64,000 bases of DNA from Candidatus Nanopelagicales bacterium (GTDB taxonomy: Bacteria > Actinomycetota > Actinomycetes > S36-B12 > UBA5976), in NCBI GenBank assembly GCA_036796575.1, contig DAIRCR010000002.1, positions 21,020 through 85,019 of the forward strand. Direction: 5' to 3'. Position numbers and translations under genes: made by a program. Below, piece after piece: positions 9,525-64,000 of the stretch. Under the pieces are notes generated by a model that was not told the DNA's origin, did not search any database, and saw nothing but the letters and a program-made list of their open reading frames with translations. Numbering within the stretch: the first letter of the stretch is position 1; each line of letters opens with the position of its first letter.

Positions 9525-9526
9525 TC

Positions 9527-46207: not shown

Positions 46208-46242
46208 AGTTTTCACCCGGACGGCCTGTCGAGCGTAAGCGG

Positions 46243-46279
46243 CAGGACGTCGCGGGTTCAAGTCCCGTCACTCACCCCA
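46243..46279 (+). repeat. perfect 37-nt direct duplicate of the tRNA-His 3' part (46171-46207): att-site-like scar
   Basis: caggacgtcgcgggttcaagtcccgtcactcacccca occurs twice, separated by 35 nt. The second copy has no matching 5' acceptor strand or D-arm, so it is not a tRNA. Confidence 0.9.
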
Positions 46280-46309
46280 TTAAATGATCAACCTGCTAGG
46301 TTTTGGATC

Positions 46310-48656: not shown

Positions 48657-48670
48657 GAGTTCGGTAGATT

Positions 48671-49849
48671 GTGACTATGTCAGCGGAGATTAATCACAAT
48701 GTGGAATGGGACTTAGCCGTAGCGCTGAGCTTCGAATCTGTTGTGCCAAAGTCCACTAGTCAACTTCCGATTGCTGATGCCATCAACCTGGTCTTGGCTC
48801 AAGACTTAACGGCAGACATTGACTTGCCTCCAGCTCACACCGCCATGATGGATGGCTATGCAGTATTTGGACAAGGTCCATGGAAGATTGTCGGCGAACT
48901 TCATGCGGGTAGTTTTCTGCCTTACCTAGAAACTGGCTGTGCCCTGAAAGTAAGTACCGGCGCTCACCTGCCCCCACACTGTTCCTTCGTTATCCCCCAA
49001 GAACTGGCAACCTTGTTTGAAGGTGATGTGGCCAGCAAAAACTCATTCACACCAGGCCAGCATATTCGTCAGCCTGGTGATGAAGCCTTGGCTGGCGAAA
49101 ATATCGCCGTTGCTGGCACCTTACTCACACCGGCAGTTGCTGGATTAGCAGCTAGCTCAGGTATCGATGAAGTTTCGGTTTATGAACGACCTAGCGTTTC
49201 GATTGTTGTTACTGGTAGTGAGTTGGCTACTTCAGGAAAGCCTGGACCTGGTCAGATTCGGGATTCACTTTCTGTGCAAGTTAGTCCGTGGTCGCAATAT
49301 CTCGGTGCAACAGTGAACTCAAGTGTTAACTGTGCCGATAACTTAACTGAGCTATGTGCAGCAATTACAAAAGCTGACGGTGACATAGTGGTTGTCACAG
49401 GTGGAAGTTCATTCGGTGAACATGATTACTTGCGACCTGCGCTCGAGCAACTTGGTGCCATTTATGTCGTCAGTGAAATTTGGATGCGCCCTGGTCATCC
49501 ATCTCTGCTAGCTAAACTTCCTGATGGCAAGTTAGTTGCAGGTCTACCTGGCAACCCACTTGCTGCCCTCGTAAGTTTTATGACAGTTGTTGCGCCGGCG
49601 CTGCGTGGTCTCTCTGGGCAAAGTGAATACCGAATAGGCAAAATTGCGCTGGCTAAGGATTTTGTGTGTGATCGCACTCGAGTAGTTCCAATTGTGATGT
49701 CTTCTGGAGCGGCCGAAATGACTGAGTTTCGTGGCTCCGCCATGCTGCGCGGACTTTCGCACGCGGATGCACTCGGAGTTATTTCACCTGGCAACAATCC
49801 AGCTGGAACTCTGATTAGAGTTCTTCCACTGCCTTGGCGAGTTAATTAA
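48671..49849 (+). CDS. moeA: molybdopterin molybdenumtransferase MoeA
   Basis: Motifs MMDGYAV, VVTGGSS.GE.D and PGNP.AA. Confidence 0.85.
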   Translation: MTMSAEINHNVEWDLAVALSFESVVPKSTSQLPIADAINLVLAQDLTADIDLPPAHTAMMDGYAVFGQGPWKIVGELHAGSFLPYLETGCALKVSTGAHLPPHCSFVIPQELATLFEGDVASKNSFTPGQHIRQPGDEALAGENIAVAGTLLTPAVAGLAASSGIDEVSVYERPSVSIVVTGSELATSGKPGPGQIRDSLSVQVSPWSQYLGATVNSSVNCADNLTELCAAITKADGDIVVVTGGSSFGEHDYLRPALEQLGAIYVVSEIWMRPGHPSLLAKLPDGKLVAGLPGNPLAALVSFMTVVAPALRGLSGQSEYRIGKIALAKDFVCDRTRVVPIVMSSGAAEMTEFRGSAMLRGLSHADALGVISPGNNPAGTLIRVLPLPWRVN

Positions 49850-50061
49850 GCATTCGCCTTAGCGCGAAGTTCATCAACGACCTTGTTTAGAGTCTCACTA
49901 AAGTCATTCCGATTACTCGTTACATGCTGGTAAAAGTCAGAGCGCATCTTTGGCGTCCAAAATTTCACAAGATGTTCAGAAATTCGCAAATAAGTCTCTT
50001 CGTGAACTGGGATATTTTTTTCAATGTCTCCAGCCATTCGAGTAAGAATTGAAATGTCCAA
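49846..50061 (-). CDS. fdsD: NAD-dependent formate dehydrogenase delta subunit (FdsD-like)
   Basis: 71 aa with a TTG start 3 nt after the fdsA stop. The L.RMA.DI...F....E......HL.KFW.P.MR pattern matches FdsD. Confidence 0.7.
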   Translation of the reverse strand: MDISILTRMAGDIEKNIPVHEETYLRISEHLVKFWTPKMRSDFYQHVTSNRNDFSETLNKVVDELRAKANA

Positions 50062-50063
50062 AA

Positions 50064-52913
50064 TTATGCCTTAGTCAAAACAGATTCAAGCGAATTCGTT
50101 GGTGCTTCACTCGAATCAGCTGGGCGAATTTCAACGGCTGTTACTTTGAATTCTGGACAGTTTGTCGCCCAGTCTGAAAACTCAGTTGTAATGACATTTG
50201 CCCCACTGGTTGGGTGGTGGAATGTTGTGTGAACTACACCAGCCGGGACACGATCGCTCACAAGTGCAGTCAGAATAGTTTCGCCAATTCGACTCGACAC
50301 TGCAATCTTTTGACCATCAGCAATTCCGCGCATTGCAGCATCTGCCTCATGAATTTCTAGAACATCTTCTGGATGCCAAGTAACGTTTGCGGTTCGACGG
50401 GTTTGAGCGCCAACGTTGTACTGGCTCAAGATACGACCTGTTGTTAGCAGGAGTGGGAACTTACGATTTGAACGCTCTTCAGTTGGCACAAATGGGGTTT
50501 CCATAAATTGACCCTGTCCACGTACGAAACCTTCAACGTGCATGATTGGTGTTCCGGTTGGAGCCGCATCATTACATGGCCATTGCACGCTGCCAACTTC
50601 ATCAAGCATTGCAAAGCTAACGCCTTTGAAAGTTGGTGTGATTTCTGCAATCTCGTCCATGATCTGAGCGGCATTGTCATAGTGCATTTCATAACCCATG
50701 GCCTGCGATAGTTCACAAATGATTTGCCATTCCTGCTTGCCATTCTTAGCGGCCATTACCGGACGCACGCGGTTGATGCGTCGCTCGGCATTGGTGAAGG
50801 TTCCATCCTTTTCCAGGAATGAAGTTCCTGGCAGAAATACATGCGCAAACTTTGAAGTTTCATTCAAGAACAAGTCCTGTACTACAACCAGATCCATCGC
50901 CTTAAGCGACTTTTCCACGTGCATAGTGTTTGGGTCAGATTGTGCGATGTCTTCACCATGTACAAACAGCCCACGGAATTCGCCAGAGATCGCATTGTCG
51001 AACATGTTTGGAATTCGCATGCCTGGATCAGACATGAGTTTTACGTCCCAAAGCATTTCAAACTGTTCGCGAACCGCATTGTCAGAAACATGTCGATAGC
51101 CCGAAAGCTCGTGTGGGAAGGATCCCATGTCGCATGCGCCTTGCACATTGTTCTGGCCGCGGAGTGGGTTAACTCCAACGCCATCGCGGCCGATGTTTCC
51201 GGTAGCCATCGCTAGGTTTGCCATACCCATAACCATGGTTGAACCCTGGGAATGTTCGGTAACTCCTAAACCGTAGTAAATCGCAGCATTCTTGCCAGTG
51301 GCATACATGCGCGCGGCCTGACGAATGGTTTCGGCTGGAACTCCAGATTGTGCTTCTACTACTTCTGGGCTGTTCTCCGGAAGTTCGATGAATTTGCGCC
51401 AGCGATTAAACGGTCCTGGATCGCAACGTTCGGCCACAAACTCTTCATCAATCAAGCCTTCAGTTGCGATGACATGTGCAATTGCATTAACCACTGCCAC
51501 GTTGGTTCCTGGCTGTAGTTGTAAGTGATGATCAGCCTTAATGTGTGCTGATTCAACAAGATCAATCTTGCGCGGATCAATAACAATTAAGTTTGCGCCT
51601 TCGCGGATGCGGCGCTTCATGCGAGAGGCAAATACTGGATGAGCGTCAGTTGGATTCGCGCCAATAACCACGATTACATCAGTCTTTGCTACTGACTTAA
51701 AGTCCTGAGTTCCAGCGGAAGTTCCAAACGTAGTGCTTAAGCCATATCCAGTTGGTGAGTGGCAAACGCGAGCGCAGGTATCAATATTGTTATTTCCAAA
51801 AGCAGCGCGAACCATTTTTTGTACGACAAAGATTTCTTCATTGGTACATCTTGACGAGGAGATTCCACCAATGCTGTTATCGCCATACTTTTCTTGAATC
51901 GCCTTTAGCTTGGTCGCGGTGTATTGAATTGCTTCATCCCACGAAACTTCACGCCATTCATCGGTAATCTTCTCGCGAAGCATTGGCTTCGTGATGCGAT
52001 CTGAATGCGATGCGTAACCCCAAGCAAAGCGGCCCTTAACACAACTGTGACCTTCATTGGCTCCACCAGTTTTTGTAGGGACCATTCGAACTAATTCGTC
52101 GCCACGTAATTCAGCATTAAACGAGCAACCAACACCGCAGTAAGCACAAGTGGTTTGAACGGTGCGAGTTGGCATTCCAAGATCAATTACTGACTTTTCT
52201 TGCAAAGTTGCAGTTGGGCAAGCCTGAACGCAAGCTCCACAGGAAACACATTCACTAGAAAGGAAGTTCAAGCCACCAGGACTTACCTTCGAGTTAAAGC
52301 CACGGCCTTCGATGGTTAGTGCGAGAGTTCCTTGAACTTCATCACAAGCGCGAACGCATCGATTACAAACAATGCATTTGCTTTCATCGAATGAGAAGTA
52401 AGGATTTGAAGCATCAGTTGGAGCATCTAGGTGATTCTTGCCATCCATGCCGTAGCGAACTTCGCGAAGTCCAGCTACTCCAGCCATGTCTTGTAGTTCG
52501 CAATCGCCATTAGCGGAGCAAGTCAAGCAATCAAGTGGATGGTCGGAAATGTAAAGTTCCATGACATTCTTACGAAGTCTGGCTACCTTGGTGGTTTGGG
52601 TGCGCACAACCATGCCGTCTTCTACTGGAGTTGTGCATGATGCTGGGGTACCACGACGACCATCGATTTCAACGATGCACATACGGCAAGAACCAAATGG
52701 CTGAAGTGAATCTGTGGCACAAAGTTTTGGAATATCACAGCCAGATTCTCCGGCAGCACGCATTACCGAAGTACCTTCAGGAACTAAGTGAGTTTCACCA
52801 TCAATCGTGACGCTAACCATGACATCAGAGTTTGATTTTGGGGTGCCGTAATCTGCTTCACCGATACCAGAGCGCATCGGCATAGTTCCGCGTGGATCTG
52901 AAAGTAATGTCAT
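50064..52913 (-). CDS. fdsA: NAD-dependent formate dehydrogenase alpha subunit (Mo-bisPGD, NuoG-like N-terminus)
   Basis: It has N-terminal 2Fe-2S and 4Fe-4S Cys clusters (CATD..C..C, CIVCNRCVRAC, CVSCGACVQAC, CAYCGVGC). The Mo-ligand Cys context is SSSRCTNEE, so it is not Sec. ATG 52913 shares 1 nt with the fdsB TGA. Confidence 0.92.
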   Translation of the reverse strand: MTLLSDPRGTMPMRSGIGEADYGTPKSNSDVMVSVTIDGETHLVPEGTSVMRAAGESGCDIPKLCATDSLQPFGSCRMCIVEIDGRRGTPASCTTPVEDGMVVRTQTTKVARLRKNVMELYISDHPLDCLTCSANGDCELQDMAGVAGLREVRYGMDGKNHLDAPTDASNPYFSFDESKCIVCNRCVRACDEVQGTLALTIEGRGFNSKVSPGGLNFLSSECVSCGACVQACPTATLQEKSVIDLGMPTRTVQTTCAYCGVGCSFNAELRGDELVRMVPTKTGGANEGHSCVKGRFAWGYASHSDRITKPMLREKITDEWREVSWDEAIQYTATKLKAIQEKYGDNSIGGISSSRCTNEEIFVVQKMVRAAFGNNNIDTCARVCHSPTGYGLSTTFGTSAGTQDFKSVAKTDVIVVIGANPTDAHPVFASRMKRRIREGANLIVIDPRKIDLVESAHIKADHHLQLQPGTNVAVVNAIAHVIATEGLIDEEFVAERCDPGPFNRWRKFIELPENSPEVVEAQSGVPAETIRQAARMYATGKNAAIYYGLGVTEHSQGSTMVMGMANLAMATGNIGRDGVGVNPLRGQNNVQGACDMGSFPHELSGYRHVSDNAVREQFEMLWDVKLMSDPGMRIPNMFDNAISGEFRGLFVHGEDIAQSDPNTMHVEKSLKAMDLVVVQDLFLNETSKFAHVFLPGTSFLEKDGTFTNAERRINRVRPVMAAKNGKQEWQIICELSQAMGYEMHYDNAAQIMDEIAEITPTFKGVSFAMLDEVGSVQWPCNDAAPTGTPIMHVEGFVRGQGQFMETPFVPTEERSNRKFPLLLTTGRILSQYNVGAQTRRTANVTWHPEDVLEIHEADAAMRGIADGQKIAVSSRIGETILTALVSDRVPAGVVHTTFHHPTSGANVITTEFSDWATNCPEFKVTAVEIRPADSSEAPTNSLESVLTKA

Positions 52914-54457
52914 CACTTCACCTCTACCTTTATACCAAAATCTGCAGGGAATAACTTGAGTGCGCTTCGAACTGGCAGTGGCGTTAAGCCACCCATTGCA
53001 CATAGTGAGCCATCAGTCATGACTTCGCATAAATCTTCAAGAAGTTCAAGGTTTTTGGCTTGCTCTTCACCGGCAACAATGCGATCAATAACTTCAACGC
53101 CTCGGGTTGAACCAATTCGACAAGGTGTGCACTTGCCGCAAGATTCTTCGGCACAAAATTCCATTGCAAAGCGAGCTTGCTTTGCCATGTTCACAGTGTC
53201 ATCAAAAACCACGATGCCGCCGTGGCCCAGCATGCCGCCAACTTCAGCTAAGGATTCATAACCCATTGGAACGTCCCATGATTCGACACCAAGGTAAGCG
53301 CCAAGTGGCCCCCCAATTTGAACCGTCTTAATTGGTCGTCCACTATGAGTGCCGCCGCCAACTTTGTTCACCAGATCGCCAAGTGTGATTCCAAATGGAA
53401 GTTCAACTATGCCACCACGCAAAATGTTTCCAGCCAGTTGGAAAACTTGAGTTCCGCGCGAACGATCCACTCCAAATGATTGATACGAAGCTGCGCCATC
53501 AGCCAGAATCATTGGCACAGCTGCCAAAGTCATTACGTTATTGATAACAGTTGGCTTGCCAAACAATCCAACTAGAGCTGGGATCGGTGGCTTGGCACGA
53601 ACCATGCCACGCTTTCCTTCCAAGCTCTCCAACATTGCGGTTTCTTCACCGCAAACATAACTGCCGGCGCCAACACGAACTTCTAAATTGAATTTGAATC
53701 CAGAACCAAGAACTGAATCTCCAAGTATTTTGCTTTCATTTGCAATCTCAATTGCTTGATTCAAAACATCAATTGCATGTGGGTATTCAGATCTGACATA
53801 GATCAAGCCTTGAGTCGCACCTACTGCGATTCCAGCAATGATCATGCCTTCGATCAAGGTGAAAGGGTCGCCTTCCATCAGCATTCGATCGGCAAAAGTT
53901 CCACTGTCACCTTCATCGGCGTTACAGCAAATGTATTTTTGATCAGACTCTGTGTTTAGAACCGTTTTCCATTTGATGCCTGCCGGAAAACCTGCTCCAC
54001 CACGTCCGCGAAGTCCAGATTCAGTAACTTCATCAACAATTTTTGCTGGGCTCATCGCAATTGCATTACGCAAACCTTTAAGTCCACCGTTGACTTCGTA
54101 ATCCACCAAGGAAAGCGGATCGGTAACGCCAACCCTGGCAAAAGTTATTCGAGTTTGATTCTTAAGGAAATCCAATTCTTCGACAAGTCCTATGCAAGAG
54201 TCATGTGCACTTCCAGACAGTAGTCCAGCAGCAATCAGCTCAGGTACCTGATCAGCCGAAACATTTGCGTAGCCAACTCTTCCAGTCTCAGTTTCAACTT
54301 CGACTAGTGGCTCAAGCCAAAGCATGCCGCGGGAACCATTTCGTACAACTGTGACATCAAGTCCACTTTTGGTTGCCTGATCGGAAATTGCCTGAGCGAC
54401 TTCATTTGCTCCCATTGATAGTGCTGCCGAGTCCATAGGGACGAAAACTTTTGTCAT
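52913..54457 (-). CDS. fdsB: NAD-dependent formate dehydrogenase beta subunit (NuoF-like, FMN/NAD/4Fe-4S)
   Basis: Motifs GLRGRGGAGFP.G.KW, ADEGDSGTF and ESCGKCTPCR. Confidence 0.92.
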   Translation of the reverse strand: MTKVFVPMDSAALSMGANEVAQAISDQATKSGLDVTVVRNGSRGMLWLEPLVEVETETGRVGYANVSADQVPELIAAGLLSGSAHDSCIGLVEELDFLKNQTRITFARVGVTDPLSLVDYEVNGGLKGLRNAIAMSPAKIVDEVTESGLRGRGGAGFPAGIKWKTVLNTESDQKYICCNADEGDSGTFADRMLMEGDPFTLIEGMIIAGIAVGATQGLIYVRSEYPHAIDVLNQAIEIANESKILGDSVLGSGFKFNLEVRVGAGSYVCGEETAMLESLEGKRGMVRAKPPIPALVGLFGKPTVINNVMTLAAVPMILADGAASYQSFGVDRSRGTQVFQLAGNILRGGIVELPFGITLGDLVNKVGGGTHSGRPIKTVQIGGPLGAYLGVESWDVPMGYESLAEVGGMLGHGGIVVFDDTVNMAKQARFAMEFCAEESCGKCTPCRIGSTRGVEVIDRIVAGEEQAKNLELLEDLCEVMTDGSLCAMGGLTPLPVRSALKLFPADFGIKVEVK

Positions 54458-54927
54458 GCGGTCACCGCCGAGGTTGCGGCAAAGATTTTTTCACAAGTTG
54501 CTCTGCCAATTGGTGCGCCATTGACCATAGCTGCAGGGCCTAGAGCGCAATTACCTAAGCAAAATGTCTGTTCCATTTGGATGTCATCCTTGATGTTTCC
54601 CTTATGGATGTCATAGCCCTTGTCATGTAGTTCGCTTATAAGGCTTGCACTGCCTGATGCTTGGCAGGCTTCCGCAACGCAAACCTTGACTACTGCCTTT
54701 GCAGGTGGTGTTGATCGGAAGTCACTATAGAAAGTGAAGACGCCATAAACCTCAGCGCGCGAAACATTGGAATTCTTCGCAATTATGTCCAAAGCGCTAT
54801 CGGGTACGTAGCCAAGGAGTTCCTGCACAAGTTGCAATGAGCGCAGAACTGCAGATCCATCCCCTTTGTAAGGTCCTAAGTAATTAAGGATGCTTTCTTC
54901 CGAGAAGTTACTCACTTGGCACTCCAA
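54454..54927 (-). CDS. fdsG: NAD-dependent formate dehydrogenase gamma subunit (NuoE-like 2Fe-2S)
   Basis: It has the Cys pattern C..AC...(G)...CLGNCALGP. There is a 4-nt overlap with fdsB. The start is TTG 54927 or GTG 54915, and both overlap the DUF1638 gene. Confidence 0.85.
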   Translation of the reverse strand: MECQVSNFSEESILNYLGPYKGDGSAVLRSLQLVQELLGYVPDSALDIIAKNSNVSRAEVYGVFTFYSDFRSTPPAKAVVKVCVAEACQASGSASLISELHDKGYDIHKGNIKDDIQMEQTFCLGNCALGPAAMVNGAPIGRATCEKIFAATSAVTA

Positions 54928-55501
54928 TTAGTTTTAACAGTTGTTCTTCAAGGTGCTTGTCGCCCACTTGGATGATTTCAAGTGGTAATCCGATTAATTC
55001 AGCAGCGTCTTTTGCGGCAGCTTCTAGTTCAGGAGTTTGATGTTGAGCTAGCCATAAAACTCTTTTGTAGGAATGAAAGTAGTCATCGCGCAATTCTGGG
55101 TAACGGTCTAAGCCCATTTCTGTCATGACGCTTCGGCGAAAAGTCTTAACCAAGTAATCAGTGAATACATACGTCCCCGGAACGGCCTCAAACTCAGCTT
55201 TCATTCTTTCAGCAGTTGCAAATACGTCATAGCAATGGTCACCTGATAAGCGCGAGACTTGATACTTATCGCAAAGTGCATCTATCGCCCCATAAGTTCC
55301 ACAATCTGCGTATGCAATCGCTACTTGATCATGAGTTGGTTGTAATTCCAGAATCATTTTTTCAACTTCAGGTGCAATTCCCTCAGGGCGATTGTGCAGT
55401 AATGGGTTTATTGGCTCGATGCGTAATGTCAGATTTCGACGATCGGCAATTTCGTGCACGTGGGCTGCCAGTGCACCGCAAGCTATAACTGCAACGCTCA
55501 T
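54908..55501 (-). CDS. DUF1638-like protein of unknown function
   Basis: 197 aa. The N-terminus VIACGALAAHV, the motif YADCGTYGAIDA and GDHCYD match my recollection of DUF1638. It overlaps both neighbouring genes. Confidence 0.55.
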   Translation of the reverse strand: MSVAVIACGALAAHVHEIADRRNLTLRIEPINPLLHNRPEGIAPEVEKMILELQPTHDQVAIAYADCGTYGAIDALCDKYQVSRLSGDHCYDVFATAERMKAEFEAVPGTYVFTDYLVKTFRRSVMTEMGLDRYPELRDDYFHSYKRVLWLAQHQTPELEAAAKDAAELIGLPLEIIQVGDKHLEEQLLKLIGVPSE

Positions 55502-57366
55502 GACGGCAGCGCCAGCTCCAAGAAGAACTTGTCATTGAAATCTGGGCGATCGGAAAGCTCCACATAATCAACTTCATCCAGCAAAGTTGTTGCGCCACTT
55601 CGCTCTGTGCTGGAAAGCAGAACCATCTTTGCGCCTTCGCCTGCAACGTTTCCAGCACTAACGATGCGCATCACTGGAAGTTTTGGAACAAGCCCAATGC
55701 CAATTGCCGAAGCAGGTGACAAGTAAGAACCAAATGAGCCAGCTAACAAAACCTGCTGAACATCGTCATCCACAAGGCCTACTTCTTCAAGCAGTAAGCG
55801 CCATCCGGTAGCAATCGAAGCTTTTGCGAATTGAAGTTCGCGAACATCGCGCTGCGACAAGTAAACCGTTGGCTCTTCGCCATCCCAATGTAGGACGAAG
55901 ATTCGATCTCCAGCTTCCCGAGTCAACAAGCGTGACGCTAAATGTGGAGCAATCTTCATGGCGTCTTCATCTGTGACAAATCTGCCTGAGTCATCAATCA
56001 GTTTTGCTTTGTGCAATACATAAACGGCATCAACCAGGCCAGAGCCACAAATGCCTACTGGAGTTGTATCTCCGATGACTCCAAGTTTGATTCCTTCGTC
56101 AGTAACTTGAACAACTTCAATAGCGCCATCAGCTGCGCGCATACCGCAAGCAATCGAGGCAGCTTCAAATGCTGGGCCAGCTGGCGCAGCAGTTGTAAGG
56201 ATTTGATCGCCATTGGAAAGTACGATTTCGCAGTTAGTGCCAACATCAATCAACAGGCGAACTCGCTTATCGCGATCCATGCCAGTTGCTAGGACACCAG
56301 CAACGATGTCGCCACCAACGTATGCGCCAAAGGCTGGGAATAAGAAGACTCGTGCTGATGGCAATAGTTCAATGCCGATTTCAGCCGCTGTAAAGATCGG
56401 CCATTTCTGAGCAGCAGTAATGAACGGTGCAACACCAACTGGCTCTGGATCTACGCCAAGCAAAATCTCAACCATTGTGGCGTTACCAGCGATCGCAATT
56501 TCATAAACCTGGTCTGCTGAGACTTCAGCCTCAGTACAAACCTCTGCAATCAGTTCATTCAATGTGGCAAGGCCAGCAGTTTGCATCAAACCAGCTGCTA
56601 ACGGATCCATCATGGTTGCTGAAATTCGTGAGATTACGTCGGCGCCAAATGGCTGCTGCTTATTCAGCATTGACTTAACTGCCATAGGAGTTCCGGTAAC
56701 TAGGTCTAGCAGGGTTGCTACAACAGTCGTAGTTCCAAGGTCGATGCCAATTGCATAGTTTTGCGCCGAGGTATCCCCTGGCTCGACAGCAATCAAAGCT
56801 TCATTCACAACAACTGCAGTGACTTTGAAATCGTTCTTGCGAAGAACAGTTGGAAGTGTCTTTAGAACTGAGAGATCGGCCTCAAATTCCAAGTCATCCA
56901 TAGCATCGCGTAACCGATCAATGTCCGGGCGCTGATCGTGAAGGGTTGGTTCAATAAGTTCTACATAACGCTTTTGAACTGCCGGTCGCAGAATTACTTG
57001 GCGTCCAACACCAACGGTTGCTGCTTTTGGACGAGTTGAAAGTGGCGGAACATCAACCTTTAGATTTCCATTTGCGCGAGCCACACATGCCAAACGCCAG
57101 CCATCGGCTAGTTGTTCTGGGCTGAAAGCTCGAATATCCAAGCGTGAAACCGGAACTTCACCCTCGATAACTTGGATCTTGCACTTCTTACAAGTTCCAT
57201 GGCCACCACAGGTTGAGTCAATCGCTAAACCGTTCCAGGAAGCAGCATCAAAAACAGTGACACCAGGTGGCACTCGAACATCAGTTCCACTTGGTGTGAA
57301 CTGTAATTGAACGCGACCAAGCCCACTGACAGTTGTGTCAGCCTTTGTGCTTTCTTCGTTTGGCAC
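55498..57366 (-). CDS. RACo-type ATP-dependent corrinoid reductive activase (N-terminal plant-type 2Fe-2S ferredoxin + ASKHA ATPase, DUF4445)
   Basis: GTG start. The ferredoxin Cys motif is STCGGHGTCKKCKIQV...LAC. ASKHA phosphate motifs are GIDLGTTT and DVGTN.E. 622 aa. Confidence 0.8.
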   Translation of the reverse strand: MPNEESTKADTTVSGLGRVQLQFTPSGTDVRVPPGVTVFDAASWNGLAIDSTCGGHGTCKKCKIQVIEGEVPVSRLDIRAFSPEQLADGWRLACVARANGNLKVDVPPLSTRPKAATVGVGRQVILRPAVQKRYVELIEPTLHDQRPDIDRLRDAMDDLEFEADLSVLKTLPTVLRKNDFKVTAVVVNEALIAVEPGDTSAQNYAIGIDLGTTTVVATLLDLVTGTPMAVKSMLNKQQPFGADVISRISATMMDPLAAGLMQTAGLATLNELIAEVCTEAEVSADQVYEIAIAGNATMVEILLGVDPEPVGVAPFITAAQKWPIFTAAEIGIELLPSARVFLFPAFGAYVGGDIVAGVLATGMDRDKRVRLLIDVGTNCEIVLSNGDQILTTAAPAGPAFEAASIACGMRAADGAIEVVQVTDEGIKLGVIGDTTPVGICGSGLVDAVYVLHKAKLIDDSGRFVTDEDAMKIAPHLASRLLTREAGDRIFVLHWDGEEPTVYLSQRDVRELQFAKASIATGWRLLLEEVGLVDDDVQQVLLAGSFGSYLSPASAIGIGLVPKLPVMRIVSAGNVAGEGAKMVLLSSTERSGATTLLDEVDYVELSDRPDFNDKFFLELALPS

Positions 57367-57391
57367 GTTTTATCTCTCGCTTAGTTTGAAA

Positions 57392-58243
57392 TTACGCTTC
57401 TTTATTTGCGCGGAAACTGGTGATCCAATTTGCGCCCCACTGGTCTAATCCAAGAAGTAGGTCGGCTGCGCGAACTGCCTGGACAACTTCTGGAGTACGG
57501 CCATCCATGATTGCTGAGGTCAGACCCATTGACATTGCCATCGGCATGAAAGCTGCATTTAACGCGTGACGATTTGGCAGACCGAATGAAACATTGGATG
57601 CACCGATCGACATGTTTAAGCCGTACTTTTCTTTAATCAAGTAGATCGTTTCAAGGGTGTTCTTGGCATTTTCTGGATCAGCACCAACTGGCATGGCAAG
57701 TGGATCAATCAGAAGGTTATCTAGTGAGATGCCTTCTTTTTCAACGCGTCGCACAATCTTTTCCACAATTACCATGCGGTCTTTGGCAAGCATTGGGATT
57801 TCAATTTCATCATTTGGCAGTGCCAAGATGGCAGCGTCATATTTCTTAACCAAAGGAAGGATGATGTCCATGCGCTCGTCTTCACCAGTCATTGAGTTAA
57901 CCAGTGCTTTTCCTTCATATACGGCCAGACCAGCATCAAGTGCTTCAATTACAGATGAGTCAATGCAGATTGGCAGGTCAGTCAGTGACTGAACTAGCTT
58001 GATGGCCCGGGCTAAAAGTGCTGGTTCGTCAGTAAGTGGCACACCCATGTTCACGTCAAGCATGTCGCAGCCACCAGCAACCTGGTCAGCAACGTCAATG
58101 TTGATAGTTGAAAGATCATCAGCACGAAGCTTTTCCTGGAACAATTTGCGGCCAGTCGGATTCAGGCGTTCGCCAATGATTACGAATGGTAAGTCGTGAC
58201 CCATCGTTACTGTTTTTGTGGCGGAACTAAGCACTGTATGCAT
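57392..58243 (-). CDS. methyltetrahydrofolate:corrinoid methyltransferase (pterin-binding TIM barrel, MtgA/AcsE/MetH-domain-like)
   Basis: The segment FVIIGERLNPTGRK...GCDMLDVNMG is a pterin-binding signature. ATG 58243 has AAGGA upstream and gives a 17-nt overlap with metF. Confidence 0.8.
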   Translation of the reverse strand: MHTVLSSATKTVTMGHDLPFVIIGERLNPTGRKLFQEKLRADDLSTINIDVADQVAGGCDMLDVNMGVPLTDEPALLARAIKLVQSLTDLPICIDSSVIEALDAGLAVYEGKALVNSMTGEDERMDIILPLVKKYDAAILALPNDEIEIPMLAKDRMVIVEKIVRRVEKEGISLDNLLIDPLAMPVGADPENAKNTLETIYLIKEKYGLNMSIGASNVSFGLPNRHALNAAFMPMAMSMGLTSAIMDGRTPEVVQAVRAADLLLGLDQWGANWITSFRANKEA

Positions 58244-59183
58244 GGTCGTCCTTTACTTCGTTAGTTGTTGCATTGTTGGTTGTTATCTCGCGAACTCGGC
58301 CAAGATCTGTCATTAGTCGTTCTAAAGTGTCGTCATTTCTAAAATCAGTAATGTGTAAGCCACGTACTGCCGGTTGCGCCAATGCGTGCTGGGCAAACTC
58401 CAAAGTCTGCAAATACGCTTCTTCGGCTGGATCAGCTGCCTTTTCCACGCGAGCAATTTGATCAGCAGGAACATCAATACCAGGCACACTGTTGTGCATA
58501 AAGTTCAGTGGCCGAGCTCCCTTAACCAAAACAACGGTTGGAATGATTGCGATTTTGCCAGCAAGGCCAGCATCGCGAACTCCAGCACAGAATTTTTCTA
58601 GCCGATCTTGGTGATAACAAATCTGAAGCTGCAGGAACTTTGCGCCTGCTGCGTACTTCTTTGCAACGCGTTGCACTCGGTACTCAAACGGTGGAGCGCC
58701 AGGATTTTCAACTGCGCCAATAAACATGTGCGGAGCTGGATCAATTTTGCGACCAGACATGTACTCGCCACGTTTAATTGTGCTCATTAGGCGAACAAGT
58801 TGTGGGCCATCTAAATCAAAAACTCTACGAGCTTCGGTTTCATCACCGGCAGTTACGTCATCACCCGTAAGTGCAACATAATTTTCTACGCCAAACATCG
58901 AGGCGCCCATGATGTCGGCTTGTTGGGCTAGGCGATTCTTGTCGCGGCACACAACCTGCAAGATTGGCTCTAAGCCAAGTTGCTTAATTGCAATTGCAGT
59001 TGCCACGTTTGATGCGTGTGCATGCGCTGCAGTGTTGTCCGTCGCATTGACACCATCAAACCAACCACGGAACCGATCTGCATACTTCTTTGCTTTTTCA
59101 AGTCCGTTTCCATCTAGGGAATGAAATTCAGCAGTAAAAACAGTTTCAGTTGTATTCATTAACTTTTGCTCAAGAGTCGACAT
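58227..59183 (-). CDS. metF: methylenetetrahydrofolate reductase (MetF family)
   Basis: 318 aa. The stretch VNATDNTAAHAH....AIAIK..G.EPILQVVCRD.NR...Q..I.GA...G..N.VALTGDD is an MTHFR barrel signature. Confidence 0.8.
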   Translation of the reverse strand: MSTLEQKLMNTTETVFTAEFHSLDGNGLEKAKKYADRFRGWFDGVNATDNTAAHAHASNVATAIAIKQLGLEPILQVVCRDKNRLAQQADIMGASMFGVENYVALTGDDVTAGDETEARRVFDLDGPQLVRLMSTIKRGEYMSGRKIDPAPHMFIGAVENPGAPPFEYRVQRVAKKYAAGAKFLQLQICYHQDRLEKFCAGVRDAGLAGKIAIIPTVVLVKGARPLNFMHNSVPGIDVPADQIARVEKAADPAEEAYLQTLEFAQHALAQPAVRGLHITDFRNDDTLERLMTDLGRVREITTNNATTNEVKDDHAYSA

Positions 59184-59581
59184 TAATGATCAACTCCTTG
59201 CGCAACAGATTCATCAGTTGTGTTCTTCCAACCAGCTGGAGTCCAGCGATCTCTCTTAGTGAAGAAGTTCTTCCAGGATGAAGTTCCCTTTAGGCGGTTA
59301 TCAACCGGTGGACGTAAATGGTTGTATTCGTCCTTCCAAGAAGACGGCAAAGGCCAATCCTGCGTGCGGTCATAGGCCTTAAGCCAGACGCATTTCATTT
59401 CTGGCTTCACTTCGCAATGACCGTTTTCGCGCACGCCACCACATGGGCCATTGCGCAATGTCTTTGGGCAATTCATAGGGCAAGTCATGCCAGTTGAATG
59501 CAAAACACATTGCCCGCAGTCTTGGCATCCCCAAACGGGACCCTTAACTACGTGCTCAATGGTTGCGATAAAGGTTGTCAT
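59183..59581 (-). CDS. metV: MetV-like zinc/FeS-ribbon protein (methylene-THF reductase C-terminal-domain family)
   Basis: 132 aa. It has the Cys-rich segment GCQDCGQCVLHSTGMTCPMNCPKTLRNGPCGG. It shares 1 nt with the metF start. Confidence 0.7.
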   Translation of the reverse strand: MTTFIATIEHVVKGPVWGCQDCGQCVLHSTGMTCPMNCPKTLRNGPCGGVRENGHCEVKPEMKCVWLKAYDRTQDWPLPSSWKDEYNHLRPPVDNRLKGTSSWKNFFTKRDRWTPAGWKNTTDESVAQGVDH

Positions 59582-59589
59582 GGTGATGT

Positions 59590-60246
59590 TTACTGGCCGC
59601 GCTTAACGGCGATTAGTTCCTTAGCCTTGCGAACTGCAGTTGAAGCATCTGCTGCATAGCCGTCAGCGCCAACAACATCAGCGTATTCCTGGGTAACCGG
59701 AGCGCCACCAACCATGATGATTACGTCATCGCGCATACCAGCCTTGGTAATTTCATGAATGTTTACCTTGAACATTGGCATTGTGGTTGTTAGGAATGCG
59801 GACATACCAACAACGTCTGGCTGATGTTCCTTGATTGCATCAATGAACTTCTCAGGTGCACACTGCACACCGATATCAATAACTTGGAAGCCAGCGCCTT
59901 CAAGCATGATGTTTACAAGATTCTTGCCAATGTCGTGAACGTCACCCTTAACAGTTCCCATTAGGAATGTTCCTACGGTCTCAGCACCAGTGTCTGCCAG
60001 TAGCGGACGAAGCACATCTAATGCGCCACTCATGGCACGACCAGCAATCAACATTTCTGGCACGAAGTAGTCGCCGCGCTCAAATCGTGCGCCAACTTCT
60101 TCAAGTGAAGGGATCAATGCATCGAACAGGATTGAGTCAGGTGTTAGCCCTTCCTCAAGTCCCATGTGAGTTAGCTCTAGCACGCGAGGTGCATTGCCTT
60201 CCATGGTGCGTTCGTACATTTCCTTTAGAATTTCGTCGGGTGTCAT
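59590..60246 (-). CDS. corrinoid (cobalamin-binding) protein of methyltransferase systems (MtgC/MttC-like)
   Basis: 218 aa. It has an N-terminal helical cap and a Rossmann-like domain with the base-off/His-on motif GDVHDIGKN (DxHxxG). SAFLTTT and GGAP are also present. Confidence 0.88.
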   Translation of the reverse strand: MTPDEILKEMYERTMEGNAPRVLELTHMGLEEGLTPDSILFDALIPSLEEVGARFERGDYFVPEMLIAGRAMSGALDVLRPLLADTGAETVGTFLMGTVKGDVHDIGKNLVNIMLEGAGFQVIDIGVQCAPEKFIDAIKEHQPDVVGMSAFLTTTMPMFKVNIHEITKAGMRDDVIIMVGGAPVTQEYADVVGADGYAADASTAVRKAKELIAVKRGQ

Positions 60247-61010
60247 GCCGCTCCTTCTTGTTGTAAGCCTTGCACTTGGTTTAATTCTCGACGCATAAGT
60301 TGTGCAATGTGCAATTCATCGCCTGGGGTAATTCTCTCAGCCGGACCACTAACCGACAAAGCCGCGATCGCCTTGCCGTTGGCACCTAGAACAGGAATAG
60401 CAACTGCAATCAGACCTTGTTCAAGTTCGTTACGTATAACGGCGTAACCAACTTCTCGAGCTTTTCGAATGTGCTGATCAAGTAATGCGAAATCTGTGAT
60501 TGTTTCTGTAGTGCGCGGCGCCAAAGTGCTCGGCACGGTAGCTCCACCAAAGGCAATCAGAACTTTGCCGGCTGCTGAGCAATGTGATGGAACGCTTTCA
60601 CCAACCCAATTACGACTACCTAATAAGTAAGAACCTTCAACTTGAGCGATGTTGTCGATACCGGTATGTCCGGTTACCGCAAGACTGACGGTTTCGTGAG
60701 TAATGTCAGCAATTCGTTCCATGGCTGGAGTCAATGAACCAATCAATGCTGTGTAAGCGCCACCACGAACTGCAAACTGGTTTAGAACTGGACCTGCTTC
60801 AAAGCCGCCAACCGTGCTTCGGGCCAAAAGCCCACTTCGTTCCAATGCGCTAAGAATTCGAGAAGTTGTTCCCTTAGCAAGGCCGGTGGCTGCAACTAAT
60901 TCACTTAAAGTTTGCGGATCCTCCGAGTTAATAACTCGGATTAAAAGGTCACAGGCGCGATCGATAGATTGCGTTCCAGTTACTGGCTTTTCGCCTAACT
61001 CTTCGCTCAT
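60243..61010 (-). CDS. IclR-family transcriptional regulator
   Basis: It has an N-terminal wHTH (SIDRACDLL......LSELVAATGLAKGTTSRIL.ALE..G) and an IclR effector domain. An ATGA overlap joins it to the corrinoid-protein gene. Confidence 0.85.
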   Translation of the reverse strand: MSEELGEKPVTGTQSIDRACDLLIRVINSEDPQTLSELVAATGLAKGTTSRILSALERSGLLARSTVGGFEAGPVLNQFAVRGGAYTALIGSLTPAMERIADITHETVSLAVTGHTGIDNIAQVEGSYLLGSRNWVGESVPSHCSAAGKVLIAFGGATVPSTLAPRTTETITDFALLDQHIRKAREVGYAVIRNELEQGLIAVAIPVLGANGKAIAALSVSGPAERITPGDELHIAQLMRRELNQVQGLQQEGAA

Positions 61011-61072
61011 CTCGCCTCCCCCTATATAGAGGTCAAATTTCGATCTGAAGCTTTCGAGAAAGTTTCACGATC

Positions 61073-61088
61073 TGGAACCTATGTTCCA
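61073..61088. promoter_or_regulatory. perfect 6-4-6 palindrome TGGAAC-CTAT-GTTCCA in the divergent promoter region; candidate IclR operator
   Basis: Read directly. The half-site string TATGTTCCA recurs at 61183-61191, overlapping the mttB-like start codon. Confidence 0.5.
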
Positions 61089-61148
61089 CATCGTACGCTA
61101 ACATATCGGGTATTCGTCAAGCCTTTTTGATGAAAAGTTTCAACTTGT

Positions 61149-61162
61149 TATCTAACTAGATA
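61149..61162. promoter_or_regulatory. perfect 6-2-6 palindrome TATCTA-AC-TAGATA upstream of the mttB-like gene
   Basis: Read directly. It lies 8 nt upstream of the ACAGGAG ribosome-binding site. Confidence 0.4.
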
Positions 61163-61183
61163 GCCGCACAACAGGAGCCCGTT

Positions 61184-62623
61184 ATGTTCCAGAACAAAAG
61201 CCCACGTTATGAAATTCTTTCGCAGGATGCCATGGCAGTCCTGGATAAGGGTTGGCGACGCATTGTTTCCGAAATGGGAGTCGAGTTTATGCACGAGCGC
61301 GCCTTGGACCTGTTCCGCGCAGCTGGGCAAAAAGTTGAAGGTAACAACGTTAAGTTCGATCCGGATTGGATTCTGGAGCAAGTTGCAAAGGCGCCGAGTG
61401 AATTCACTTTGCAGGCACGCAACCCAGAGAAGAACGTAATCATCGGTGGCGACAACATGGTTTTTGCTGGCGTTTACGGTCCACCGTTTGTGCGCGACTT
61501 GGCTGAGCGCCGTGATGGAACTCTTAAGGACTTCCAGAACTTCACCAAGCTTGGTCACATGTTTGGTGATCTAGATGTATCGAGCAGTGTTGTAGTTGAG
61601 CCAAACGATGCCCACCTAGATACTCGTCACATCGACATGATCCACAACTTGATGACACTTAGTGACAAGCCATTCATGGGCAATGTTGTTACTGGCTTGA
61701 ATGCACGAGACACAATCAAGATGGCTGAGATTGTTTTCGGTTCTCGCGAAAGCATCGAGAAGACTCCAGCCATTATTTCTCTAATTAATTGCAACTCCCC
61801 ACTTCGCTGGGATGATCGCATGTTGGAATCATTGTTTGAATACAGCGAGGCTGGTCAGCCTTGCGTTCTAACCCCATTCCTTTTGATGGGTGCAATGAGC
61901 CCAGTAACAATTCCAGCATCTTTGGTTCAGCAAATTGCTGAAGCATTGAGTGGTATTGCATTGGCACAGCTAGTTCGCCCAGGCTGCCCAGTTGTGTTTG
62001 GTTCATTCCTTTCAAACATTGACATGCAGTCCGGTTCCCCAATGTTTGGTACTCCAGAATCAGCAATGGGTCTGCTTTGCACTGGTCAGATCGCGCGTCA
62101 CTTTAACTTGCCTTTCCGTGGTGGTGGCGGACTAAACGCGGCCCAGACTGTTGATGCTCAGGCGGGTTACCAAACCTTGATGACAATGCACGCAACATTC
62201 CTTGCAGGCACAAACTTCGTTATGCACGCAGCCGGCTGGCTTGAAGGTGGCCTCGTAGCTTGCTATGAAAAGTTTGTTATGGACGTTGAAATTCTTCAGG
62301 CCATGCAGGCTGAGTTCACTCCATTTGAAATCGATGAAGCATCCTTGGCATTCGAAGCTCACGAAGAATCGGGTCATGGTGGTCACTTCCTAGGAACCCA
62401 ACACACCATGGAGCGATTCCGCGATTGCTTCTACCGACCATTCCTGTCGTCAGCAGATAACTTCGATCGCTGGTCACGCAATGGTTCAAAGACAACAGAT
62501 GTACGTGCCAATGAAATTGCGCACAAAATGATCGAAGAGTACGAGCCTCCAGCAATGGATTCCGCAATCAAAGAAGAGCTTGACGAATGGGTCGACAAGC
62601 GCAAAAAGGAGTTATTAGCATGA
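61184..62623 (+). CDS. MttB-superfamily methyltransferase without pyrrolysine (quaternary-amine/methylamine:corrinoid methyltransferase, MtgB-like)
   Basis: An uninterrupted 479-aa ORF. Its length and N-terminal region ([12 protein letters not shown].....RI..E.GVEF....AL.LF..AG..V) fit the trimethylamine-methyltransferase family. No in-frame TAG is needed. Confidence 0.8.
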
Positions 62624-64000
62624 AATCTGATATCGATATTGCTCGGGCAGCTACAACTGAATCAATTGTTTCGGTTGCAGCAAAAATCGGTATTCCTGCA
62701 GATGCAGTTCTGAACTATGGTCCAACAAAGGCCAAGATCAATATGGAATTCATCTCCTCGCTGAAATCTAAGCCAAACGGCAAGTTAGTTCTTGTTACTG
62801 CAATGACACCTACTCCTGCGGGTGAAGGCAAAACGACAACCACAGTTGGTTTAGGTGATGGCCTTAACGCCATTGGTAAAAAGGCAATTGTTTGTCTGCG
62901 CGAACCATCCCTTGGTCCATGCTTTGGCATGAAGGGTGGTGCTGCAGGTGGCGGTTTTGCTCAGGTAGTTCCAATGGAAGACATTAACCTGCACTTCACT
63001 GGCGACTTCCATGCCATCGGTGCTGCGCATAACTTGCTATCAGCAATGCTTGATAACCACATTTACTGGGGTAACGAACTAGGCATTGACGTGCGTCGCA
63101 TCGCTTGGAAGCGCGTAATCGATATGAACGATCGCGCCTTGCGCGAAATCACTGCTGCGCTAGGTGGACCTGGAAATGGTTACCCACGTGAAGCTGGATT
63201 CGACATCACAGTAGCAAGCGAAGTCATGGCGATTCTTTGTCTAGCAATGGATCTAGACGATCTAGAGCGTCGCCTTGGAAACATTGTTGTTGGTTATACC
63301 CGCGACAAAGTTGCAATTACTGCAGCACAACTAAATGCAAATGGTGCGATGACTGTACTCCTTAAAGATGCCTTGATGCCTAACTTGGTTCAGACTCTTG
63401 AGAACAATCCGGCATTTGTACATGGTGGGCCATTTGCAAACATTGCACATGGTTGCAACACAGTATTGGCAACCCATACTGCACTAAAGCTTGGAGACTA
63501 TGTAGTTACTGAAGCTGGCTTTGGTGCCGACCTTGGTGCTGAGAAATTCTTCGACATTAAGTGTCGCAAAGCCGGCTTAGAACCAGCTGCGGCTGTAATC
63601 GTTGCAACCGTTCGAGCGCTAAAGATGCATGGCGGCGTTGCAAAGGATGATCTTGGCAAAGAAAATGTTGCCGCTGTTGAAGCAGGACTTTCAAACCTTG
63701 GTCGTCATATCCGCAACGTACAAAAGTTTGGCGTTCCAGTTGTAGTTGGTGTCAACAACTTCACAACTGATACTGATGCTGAATTTGCTGCAGTGCAAAA
63801 GTACTGCGCTGAAATGGGCGTTGACGCTATTCGCTGCACCCACTGGGCCGAAGGCAGCAAGGGCACGACTGAGCTTGCGAAAAAGGTTGTTGAAATTGTT
63901 GAAGGTGGAACTGCAGCCTTCAAGCCGCTCTACCCAGACACCATGTCACTTTGGGACAAGGTCTCGACAATCGCAACGGAAATCTATGATGCTGGCGAAG
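62620..64000 (+). CDS. fhs: formate--tetrahydrofolate ligase, N-terminal ~460 aa (3' end beyond window; absent from ORF track)
   Basis: My own translation from ATG 62620 (ATGA overlap with the mttB-like stop) is MKSDIDIA...[17 protein letters not shown]...[20 protein letters not shown]. These are canonical FTHFS motifs. Confidence 0.93.

Follow-up and report, generated by a model that had tools for sequence, protein, structure and literature searches.

In the aerobic bacterium Ruegeria pomeroyi, the methyltransferase MtgB, the corrinoid protein MtgC, the pterin methyltransferase MtgD, a RamA-like protein, a DUF1638 protein and MetF2 are more abundant on glycine betaine, and mtgC and mtgD mutants cannot grow on betaine (PMC12478193, Mausz et al. 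2025). Genes for demethylation, cobalamin reactivation and one-carbon (C1) oxidation are often co-located in other taxa, even in operons, and are widespread in marine bacteria, with Actinomycetota contributing 5% of the mtgC-homologue reads recovered from TARA Oceans data (PMC12478193). A related gene cluster is described here from a Candidatus Nanopelagicales bacterium (assembly GCA_036796575.1, contig DAIRCR010000002.1, positions 21,020 to 85,019); the whole stretch of 64,000 nucleotides that was analyzed is referred to as the window. The cluster probably forms the methyl-oxidizing core of an island for choline and glycine-betaine catabolism in an aerobic actinobacterium of the freshwater plankton. 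A preliminary description of this DNA had regarded the underlying architecture as one characterized in strict anaerobes, a restriction that the genetic and proteomic evidence from aerobic R. pomeroyi removes (PMC12478193).

Other described systems share individual steps with the cluster. The cmu pathway of aerobic Methylobacterium extorquens CM4 (CmuA/CmuB, MetF2, FolD and PurU) oxidizes methyl groups through B12 and tetrahydrofolate (THF) to formate and CO2 (PMC3621897). The 'methylovory' of SAR11 uses MetF, FolD, Fhs and a NAD-linked formate dehydrogenase (FDH) to draw both ATP and reducing equivalents from methyl groups (PMC3160333, Sun et al. 2011). Biochemical work on MetVF enzymes has been confined to anaerobes, in which ferredoxin or RnfC2 is required (PMC8515935, PMC10472528). 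DUF1638 and a RamA-like activase are genetically linked to, and needed for, the split MetH of Phaeobacter inhibens, with a role in B12 reactivation (PMC5764234, Price et al. 2018), and DUF1638 is more abundant on N-osmolytes in R. pomeroyi (PMC12478193). Searches of papers on acI and freshwater bacteria yielded no more than a prediction for acI-B, namely that it consumes glycine betaine and has a transporter for it. A full-text literature search combining MttB, formate dehydrogenase, Actinobacteria and tetrahydrofolate found no paper.

Proposed route and gene order

The proposed route begins with an MtgB-like MttB-family enzyme, which would take one N-methyl group from a substrate that is most likely glycine betaine and transfer it to the Co(I) of an MtgC-like corrinoid protein. 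A pterin methyltransferase of the MeTr/MetH type would hand the methyl group on to THF, and a RACo/RamA-type activase, together with the DUF1638 protein, would re-reduce corrinoid that has been oxidized to Co(II) at the expense of ATP. CH3-THF would be oxidized to CH2-THF by MetVF and carried on to 10-formyl-THF by FolD, encoded elsewhere. Fhs would then free formate and make ATP, and FdsGBAD, a predicted O2-tolerant Cys-type Mo enzyme, would convert formate into CO2 and NADH.

The strongest evidence for glycine betaine (from choline) as the donor, and for flux in the oxidative direction, is the number of betaine and choline genes that accompany the locus across genomes. Eighty-six orthologous loci were assembled through neighborhood look-ups and a scan of one genome per species, and were annotated by tblastn with proteins from the window and from relatives. 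Betaine-aldehyde dehydrogenase is encoded in 57 of the 86 loci, opuAA in 58, a GMC choline dehydrogenase in 45 and purU in 38; dimethylglycine dehydrogenase is found in 16, a count limited by flank length. One locus (L007), with an MttB homologue 99% identical to that of the window, extends past the point at which the window ends. There, fhs is followed by a second IclR gene and by genes for betaine-aldehyde dehydrogenase (TIGR01804, 576 bits), a ProV-type ATPase (362 bits, above the cut-off), a fused betaine/choline permease, a substrate-binding protein and dimethylglycine dehydrogenase. The substrate-binding protein gives a weak NCBIfam choline-binding match, and its counterpart in L002 matches Pfam OpuAC. 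These genes, with the counts from the 86 loci, back the oxidative reading that had been put forward for the window, in which methyl groups pass through corrinoid and THF to formate and CO2.

The core of the locus (iclR, corrinoid protein, methyltransferase, activase and DUF1638, divergent from mttB) is nearly universal among the 86 loci, 83 of which contain the IclR gene, and is also present in the cultured aerobes Nocardioides spp., Phycicoccus, Asanoa and Nostocoides jenkinsii. The metV-metF pair is inserted in 22-23 of the 86 loci. Coupling of fhs to mttB is restricted to the clade of the window and a sister group of Nanopelagicales, and purU is found in the majority of the other loci. The features of the window that belong to the cluster, or adjoin it, are listed below with their supporting family matches.

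60243-61010, minus strand: IclR-family regulator, first gene of the minus-strand run (Pfam HTH_IclR and IclR_C)
59590-60246, minus strand: corrinoid (B12-binding) protein, MtgC-like (Pfam B12-binding, PF02310, and B12-binding_2, PF02607)
59183-59581, minus strand: MetV (MTHFR_C/DUF5981), 132 aa with 8 Cys (Pfam PF12225, 89 bits)
58227-59183, minus strand: MetF, non-canonical, MetVF type (Pfam MTHFR, 89 bits)
57392-58243, minus strand: methylcobalamin:THF methyltransferase of the MeTr/MetH-pterin type, MtgD-like (Pfam Pterin_bind, PF00809, 93 bits)
55498-57366, minus strand: RACo/RamA-type ATP-dependent reductive activase (Pfam Fer2, RACo_linker, Raco_middle and RACo_C_ter)
54908-55501, minus strand: DUF1638 protein, putative accessory to B12 reactivation (Pfam DUF1638, 86 bits)
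54454-54927, minus strand: FdsG, NuoE-like 2Fe-2S subunit of NAD-dependent FDH (Pfam 2Fe-2S_thioredx)
52913-54457, minus strand: FdsB, NuoF-like FMN/NAD subunit (Pfam Complex1_51K and NADH_4Fe-4S)
50064-52913, minus strand: FdsA, catalytic subunit with Mo-bisPGD (bis-pyranopterin guanine dinucleotide), Cys type (Molybdopterin/Molydop_binding, NuoG-like N-terminal clusters; NCBIfam Fdh-alpha)
49846-50061, minus strand: FdsD (Pfam FdsD, PF11390, 38 bits)
61184-62623, plus strand: MttB-family methyltransferase, non-pyrrolysine, MtgB-like, 479 aa (Pfam MTTB, 633 bits)
62620-64000, plus strand: fhs, formate--tetrahydrofolate ligase, cut by the window end (Pfam FTHFS, 745 bits)
61073-61088, unstranded: candidate IclR operator, perfect palindrome TGGAAC-N4-GTTCCA (TGGAACCTATGTTCCA), in the 173-bp mttB/iclR divergent spacer
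48671-49849, plus strand: MoeA, molybdenum cofactor biosynthesis, convergent with fdsD (Pfam MoeA_N, MoCF_biosynth and MoeA_C)
47802-48656, minus strand: MobA-like NTP transferase fused to a C-terminal DUF6457 domain (Pfam NTP_transf_3 and DUF6457)
46967-47809, minus strand: FdhD, sulfur-transferase/chaperone for FDH (Pfam FdhD-NarQ, 200 bits)

The junctions were re-read from the sequence. ATGA overlaps join iclR to the corrinoid gene, the activase gene to DUF1638, fdsG to fdsB, and mttB to fhs. The metV/metF and fdsB/fdsA pairs each overlap by 1 nt, metF overlaps the pterin methyltransferase gene by 17 nt, and DUF1638 overlaps fdsG by 8 nt (GTG start) or 20 nt (TTG start). The other minus-strand spacers measure 8, 25 and 2 nt. 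The longest open reading frame (ORF) of fdsA begins at 53003, and the ATG at 52913, which is preceded by AGGTAGAGG and gives a protein of 949 aa compared with the 947 aa called in relatives, is the predicted true start. The layout given in the preliminary description (eleven minus-strand genes from 61010 down to 49846, joined by overlaps and short spacers; an ATGA-coupled mttB-fhs pair diverging across 173 bp; fdhD, mobA and moeA at the fds end) thus stands in every part, since the ORF list and the Pfam/NCBIfam matches agree for each named gene, no spacer exceeds 25 nt, the divergent pair is confirmed from the sequence, and the three genes at the fds end have Pfam matches at 46967-49849. Profile searches of each ORF likewise matched all of the families that it had named (MTTB, B12-binding, Pterin_bind, MTHFR, DUF5981, RACo, DUF1638 and Fds). 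The gap between the mobA-DUF6457 gene and the divergent moeA gene is just 14 nt.

Methyl donor and direction of methyl flow

The MttB homologue belongs to the non-pyrrolysine branch of its family. Its ORF is uninterrupted, without an in-frame UAG, and the Pfam MTTB match spans residues 3-477. Comparison with Protein Data Bank (PDB) entries yields 443 bits for 4yyc, 403 for D. hafniense (Desulfitobacterium hafniense) MtgB (2qne), 400 for 9yce ('glycine betaine methyltransferase') and 129 for the pyrrolysine-type MttB 7xcl. The residues that contact betaine in D. hafniense MtgB, defined by mutagenesis and a ligand-bound structure, are Y97, R312, H348 and F356 (PMC13080624). When mapped through the 2qne alignment (SEQRES offset 16), three of the four contacts are kept in the MttB homologue (Y98 for Y97, R312 and H348), and F356 is replaced by Gly. 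Residues 348-357 (window 62242-62250) form a motif that does not vary among 24 actinobacterial orthologues and recurs in Sinorhizobium meliloti 4yyc. W352 of this motif may supply the second aromatic residue, which suggests a different aromatic arrangement in an 'aerobic' branch of the MttB family. The sequence of the MttB homologue supports a carboxylate-bearing quaternary amine as the substrate and by itself is no proof of betaine; together with the gene neighborhoods, it makes glycine betaine the most likely methyl donor.

A donor other than glycine betaine (proline betaine, carnitine, gamma-butyrobetaine, choline or trimethylamine), with the rest of the pathway unchanged, is unlikely but retains a modest chance of being correct. 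MttB-superfamily members at 40-50% identity differ in their quaternary-amine specificity, and R312 and H348 are common to several of them whereas the aromatic pair is not (PMC13080624), so that the Gly at position 356 leaves room for another ligand; R. pomeroyi, moreover, has up to seven paralogues of unknown specificity (PMC12478193). However, the orthologue group is linked with betaine-aldehyde dehydrogenase, choline dehydrogenase, an OpuA/ProV transporter and dimethylglycine dehydrogenase in dozens of genomes, and the last of these enzymes uses the product of betaine demethylation. The scores of about 400 bits to 2qne and 9yce, against 129 bits to the trimethylamine-specific MttB, also speak for a betaine-type substrate.

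The corrinoid protein carries the motifs expected of a methyltransferase-cognate protein of the MtgC/MttC type, DVHDIG (DxHxxG), SxL (MSAFL) and GG (VGGAP), and matches 1y80 (187 bits) and MttC (142 bits) in the PDB. Its best NCBIfam model is 'glycine betaine-specific corrinoid protein MtgC' at 204 bits, under the cut-off of 370, and the protein is accordingly classified as a family member and not as the named MtgC equivalog. The pterin methyltransferase exceeds the cut-off of NCBIfam PRK07535 (297 bits; cut-off 259), and its PDB matches are MeTr 2yck (150 bits), 1f6y and MetH folate domains. No D. hafniense MtgA chain appears among its PDB matches at E<=1e-5, a negative that presumes MtgA structures in the PDB, as PMC7154762 suggests. 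By these matches, the enzyme is assigned to the MeTr/MetH-pterin type and not to the D. hafniense MtgA type.

The MetF protein, which contains the MTHFR (methylenetetrahydrofolate reductase) domain, scores just 31 bits against canonical MTHFR structures. All of its 120 top matches (120/120) are Pfam MTHFR proteins, and the one neighborhood inspected among them is a cluster of the same type. The assignment to the MetVF type follows from its position next to the 8-Cys PF12225 protein MetV, with an overlap of 1 nt. The activase aligns with RACo 3zyy over residues 20-616 (337 bits), including the N-terminal [2Fe-2S] domain, and contains all four RACo/RamA domains; it is predicted to carry out the ATP-dependent reduction of the corrinoid. 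No solved structural relative of the DUF1638 protein was found, even at E<=1.

The same proteins could be read as a pathway of biosynthesis. In that case, the corrinoid protein, pterin methyltransferase, MetVF, activase and DUF1638 would primarily constitute a split cobalamin-dependent methionine synthase, with MetVF making CH3-THF, an MtgE-type subunit encoded elsewhere delivering the methyl group to homocysteine, and betaine demethylation and FDH secondary or merely co-located. MetF-type enzymes are classically reductive, and approximately 70% of the marine genomes with mtgBCD lack MetH (PMC12478193). This explanation is nonetheless quite improbable: none of the scanned window ORFs contains a homocysteine methyltransferase domain, and the cluster is joined to mttB, fhs and fdsGBAD and, in relatives, also to betaine/choline uptake and dimethylglycine dehydrogenase genes, a combination that only makes sense for oxidation. 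A dual role in methionine synthesis and oxidation is possible and would be compatible with methyl oxidation as the main function.

Several points weigh against the cluster being the methyl-oxidation core of a betaine catabolic island. FolD is not encoded in the window. The MetVF enzymes characterized so far come from anaerobes only, and no electron acceptor for MetVF is known in an aerobe. The specificity determinant at position 356 of the MttB homologue appears to differ from that of the only structurally defined MtgB. Finally, the corrinoid and pterin subunits of R. pomeroyi also serve methionine synthesis, and oxidative flux need not be the sole role of their counterparts (PMC12478193).

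Formate dehydrogenase genes, regulation and host

The cluster encodes the four subunits G, B, A and D of an FdsGBAD-type FDH. FdsA scores 911 bits against NCBIfam Fdh-alpha, over the cut-off of 666, and 1400 bits against Rhodobacter capsulatus FdsA (6tg9). FdsB scores 749 bits against Cupriavidus necator FdsB (6vw7) and 652 bits against R. capsulatus 6tg9_B. In FdsA, the stretch CARVCHSPTG agrees letter for letter with the segment of 9wxb, the best PDB match, to which it aligns, and contains Cys, not Sec, with an adjacent His; there is no in-frame TGA. From what is known of R. capsulatus FdsA, this Cys-His is presumably the Mo-site pair of the FDH. The R. capsulatus and C. necator reference enzymes are taken here to be O2-tolerant NAD-linked FDHs. 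A visual estimate on the 9wxb alignment puts FdsGBAD at ∼70% identity to the R. capsulatus enzyme, which is self-contained; FdsGBAD contains no extra domains.

Among the loci recovered, fdsGBA genes lie co-directionally behind DUF1638 only in the window and in L005/L006, L007, L012, L013, L014, L017 and L018. These eight fds-coupled species-level genomes form one freshwater clade with MttB homologues that are 72-99% identical, and all of them keep the tight DUF1638-fdsG junction. In a neighbor-joining tree of MttB, the eight are all of the clade members with enough upstream sequence, and four apparent exceptions are truncated contigs. The arrangement from iclR to fdsD is not a chance one, since the same gene order and the same tight junction recur in eight species-level genomes. 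Fusion of fds as a general trait of the actinobacterial system was considered and rejected because it is absent from every recovered locus outside the clade, including those of Nocardioides, Phycicoccus, Asanoa and the sister Nanopelagicales. The question posed at the outset, whether the fds genes are always fused to the methyltransferase genes, thus has a divided answer: they are in the eight informative genomes and are not in any other locus recovered, and the fds wiring is a trait of one freshwater clade rather than a general property of the system. Records L014 and L016 bear the titles 'Bifidobacterium breve' and 'uncultured Bifidobacterium sp.', which almost certainly misstate their taxonomy.

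FDH genes also adjoin the locus in a second arrangement. L074 (3-3622) and L083 (2-3687), from a separate actinobacterial clade, carry fdsB-fdsA on the opposite strand, converging on DUF1638, and FDH adjacency therefore either predates the co-directional fusion or recurs apart from it. The sister Nanopelagicales (L002-L004, at 4160-4402 and 1589-4159; L087) lack DUF1638, and the activase gene is followed by a ThiS/MoaD-family ORF, an MFS (major facilitator superfamily) transporter gene, moaA and moaE. The corrinoid system of the sister clade apparently works without an adjacent DUF1638 gene, and molybdenum cofactor genes still cluster there. FDH and molybdenum cofactor genes are thus found near the locus in several clades, which indicates that they tend to lie nearby and that one lineage fused the FDH genes into the transcript.

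The presence of fdsGBAD in the coupled run is best explained as a way for a small genome to regulate the last energy-yielding step together with the others and to express it in stoichiometric amounts. A more demanding explanation is that FdsGBAD acts as an electronic partner of the cluster, passing low-potential electrons from formate through the iron-sulfur clusters of FdsG/FdsB to the [2Fe-2S] center of the activase or to DUF1638, so that corrinoid exposed to oxygen stays as Co(I), and/or accepting electrons from MetVF through its FdsBG diaphorase, as RnfC2 does in Acetobacterium woodii. Formate oxidation operates at approximately −430 mV. Such a partnership would create a self-priming methyl-oxidation complex and would explain an 'anaerobic' corrinoid system in oxic lake water. 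It would fit the DUF1638/fdsG translational overlap kept in eight genomes, the convergent placement of fds beside DUF1638 in the second clade (L074 and L083), and the fact that neither the reductants of RACo nor an aerobic acceptor for MetVF is known (PMC5764234). The partnership is nevertheless very doubtful. Most loci, from Nocardioides and relatives, and three proteobacterial cassettes possess the activase and DUF1638 without adjacent fds; MetVF occurs with the activase and DUF1638, again without adjacent fds, in a minority of the actinobacterial loci and in each of the three proteobacterial cassettes; and in the sister clade of Nanopelagicales, MetVF and the activase occur with neither DUF1638 nor fds. 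FdsGBAD furthermore resembles a self-contained enzyme without extra domains, and gene adjacency by itself is weak evidence of physical coupling. The placement of fdsGBAD gives no sign of a new mechanism, a new enzyme or a new pathway logic.

A reductive, Wood-Ljungdahl-like methyl branch for CO2/formate assimilation can be dismissed as practically without likelihood: FDH, Fhs, MetVF, a MeTr-like methyltransferase and RACo are indeed acetogen methyl-branch families, but no CODH/ACS is found among the scanned window ORFs (the tblastn maps of relatives used cluster-gene queries only), and the host is aerobic, the FDH is of the O2-tolerant NAD-linked Fds type, and betaine/choline catabolic genes are attached.

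Expression of the methyl-oxidation cluster is probably controlled by the IclR regulator, which may act on both divergent transcripts through one palindromic operator in the mttB/iclR spacer. The operator palindrome is the sole exact copy in the window, and likewise in L007. A surrounding block, TTTCAc.ATcTGGAAC....GTTCCACA..GTA, is kept in 11 aligned relatives with MttB identity down to ∼72%. A second candidate site, a one-mismatch copy (TCGAACATCAGTTCCA) at 57274-57289, approximately 80 nt inside the activase gene, was rejected because it is degraded in L007 and probably arose by chance. An Rfam search of the whole window at gathering thresholds yielded five tRNAs only; riboswitches for cobalamin, THF or glycine were not found near the cluster. 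In a promoter/terminator scan, terminator-like sites were less frequent than in shuffled sequence and no gene junction contained one, so that the scan gives no ground for dividing the operon. That iclR through fdsD are co-transcribed is inferred from the overlaps and spacers of up to 25 nt, the lack of junction terminators and the conservation in eight genomes.

The window averages ∼48% G+C and includes typical chromosomal genes (ValRS, ClpX/ClpP, trigger factor, Obg, RNase E and L21). Its mttB gene shares 99% identity with that of an Actinomycetota metagenome-assembled genome (MAG) from the Lake Pavin water column (LacPavin_0818_WC45_MAG_48_15) and 97-98% with those of MAGs labeled Candidatus Nanopelagicales; lake water columns are the source of the closest MAGs. 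The gene at 31098-33035 encodes an O2-dependent copper amine oxidase (493 bits), and a homologue of the mycothiol-type protein Rv2466c is also present in the window. With the lake-water MAGs and the orthologous clusters of cultured aerobic genera, these two proteins bear out the aerobic host proposed earlier, and 'aerobic freshwater planktonic actinobacterium' is a fair description. Of the O2-dependent enzymes that had been listed for the window, the copper amine oxidase, a DAO flavoprotein and a photolyase-related protein were found; the truncated hemoglobin was not located among the scanned ORFs of at least 130 aa, and 39606-40007 encodes a thioesterase.

Other parts of the window contain genes apart from the cluster. 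The regions 6184-10576 and 13322-14509 encode an aldehyde dehydrogenase, an AA_synth protein, a DHDPS-family protein, a member of the proline racemase/4-hydroxyproline epimerase family and the DAO flavoprotein, a set resembling hydroxyproline catabolism, which fits the prediction that acI uses trans-4-hydroxyproline (PMC5574706). A protein of 1220 aa encoded at 1430-5092 (minus strand), with six BspA-type LRR_5 repeats and a Listeria-Bacteroides repeat, is a putative surface protein that is unusually large for a small planktonic genome. A tRNA gene at 46132-46204 overlaps the 5' end of the longest cation-efflux-family ORF (46163-46963); the start of this gene is therefore placed further downstream, as the Pfam match begins at residue 136. 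Two divergent tRNA genes (30814-31025) lie directly upstream of the copper amine oxidase gene.

Comparison with described systems

If the betaine-oxidation reading is correct, abundant freshwater planktonic Actinomycetota would use betaine/choline N-methyl groups for energy by a cobalamin-dependent route, which would extend the recent finding in marine Proteobacteria to lakes and to a second phylum and would place a further need for B12 on organisms among which B12 auxotrophy is common. The compact operon, which starts at methyl transfer, ends at CO2 and substitutes ATP-conserving Fhs for PurU, would be a convenient metatranscriptomic marker of osmolyte turnover, and the ∼70%-identical core cluster of cultured Nocardioides would offer a tractable model.

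The MtgB/MtgC/MtgA system of the strict anaerobe D. hafniense resembles the window in its MtgB homologue (403 bits, three of four betaine contacts) and in the order of transfer from substrate to Co(I) to THF. It differs in that the THF methyltransferase of the window is of the MeTr/MetH-pterin type and not MtgA, Gly occupies the position of F356, and the host is an aerobe, with the proposed route ending in NAD-linked FDH and respiration. MetVF of the acetogens Clostridium ljungdahlii and A. woodii likewise pairs MetF with a Cys-rich MetV, but works reductively in strict anaerobes with ferredoxin or RnfC2 (PMC8515935, PMC10472528), whereas the MetV of the window is shorter (132 aa), RnfC2 is absent, and the proposed direction is oxidative in an aerobic host.

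The cmu pathway shares with the proposed route the conversion of methyl groups through CH3-THF, CH2-THF, formyl-THF and formate to CO2 for energy, with a divergent MetF2 for the oxidative direction. It differs in its donor, chloromethane, in the fused methyltransferase/corrinoid protein CmuA, in its use of PurU without ATP gain, and in FDHs that are encoded elsewhere. SAR11, like the host of the window, is a streamlined oxic-water heterotroph, and its fdhF-fdsB-fdhD-mobA-moeA neighborhood resembles window 46967-54927; however, SAR11 demethylates betaine by BHMT (betaine-homocysteine methyltransferase) and not by a corrinoid system, and its genes are dispersed. The FdsGBAD proteins of R. capsulatus (6tg9/6tga) and C. 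necator (6vw7) are alike to those of the window, and only the context differs, in that fdsG of the window is coupled to a B12-reactivation gene.

Three proteobacterial cassettes, on Paracoccus aminovorans plasmid IV (L090), on pAZKH of Azoarcus sp. KH32C (L091) and in S. meliloti (L092), combine genes for a corrinoid protein, DUF1638, MetV, MTHFR, a methyl-THF:cobalamin methyltransferase and an ASKHA activase, as the window does. An MttB-family gene is divergent in the Paracoccus and Sinorhizobium cassettes, as in the window, and none is annotated in the Azoarcus stretch, which has proVWX, purU and a flavoprotein gene similar to dimethylglycine dehydrogenase with electron-transfer flavoprotein genes adjacent. 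In these cassettes, DUF1638 directly follows the corrinoid gene and not the activase gene as in the window, purU or a formyl transferase gene is present instead of fhs, and fds is not adjacent; a small 'virulence factor' ORF that precedes metV in Azoarcus and S. meliloti has no equivalent in the window. The idea that MetVF in an aerobe is the new element of the window was rejected because the same MetV-MetF pair is found in the Paracoccus, Azoarcus and Sinorhizobium cassettes.

The closest match to the cluster is MtgBCD of R. pomeroyi, an aerobe that also combines a pfam06253 methyltransferase, a separate corrinoid protein, a MetH-module pterin methyltransferase, a Fer2/ASKHA activase, DUF1638 and an MTHFR of its own; the system delivers its methyl groups to THF-linked C1 oxidation. 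Its genes are scattered, and the words formate and fhs are absent from the main text of the report (PMC12478193), whereas the window comes from a freshwater actinobacterium and includes an IclR regulator. The preliminary description had not recognized the wiring of the window as a characterized system. That view needs to be narrowed, as corrinoid- and THF-dependent methyl oxidation is known from R. pomeroyi and cmu, and THF-linked oxidation through Fhs and FDH from SAR11. In none of these systems, nor in the proteobacterial cassettes, is fds part of the cassette; what appears to be undescribed is the translational coupling of fdsGBAD behind DUF1638 and of fhs to mttB.

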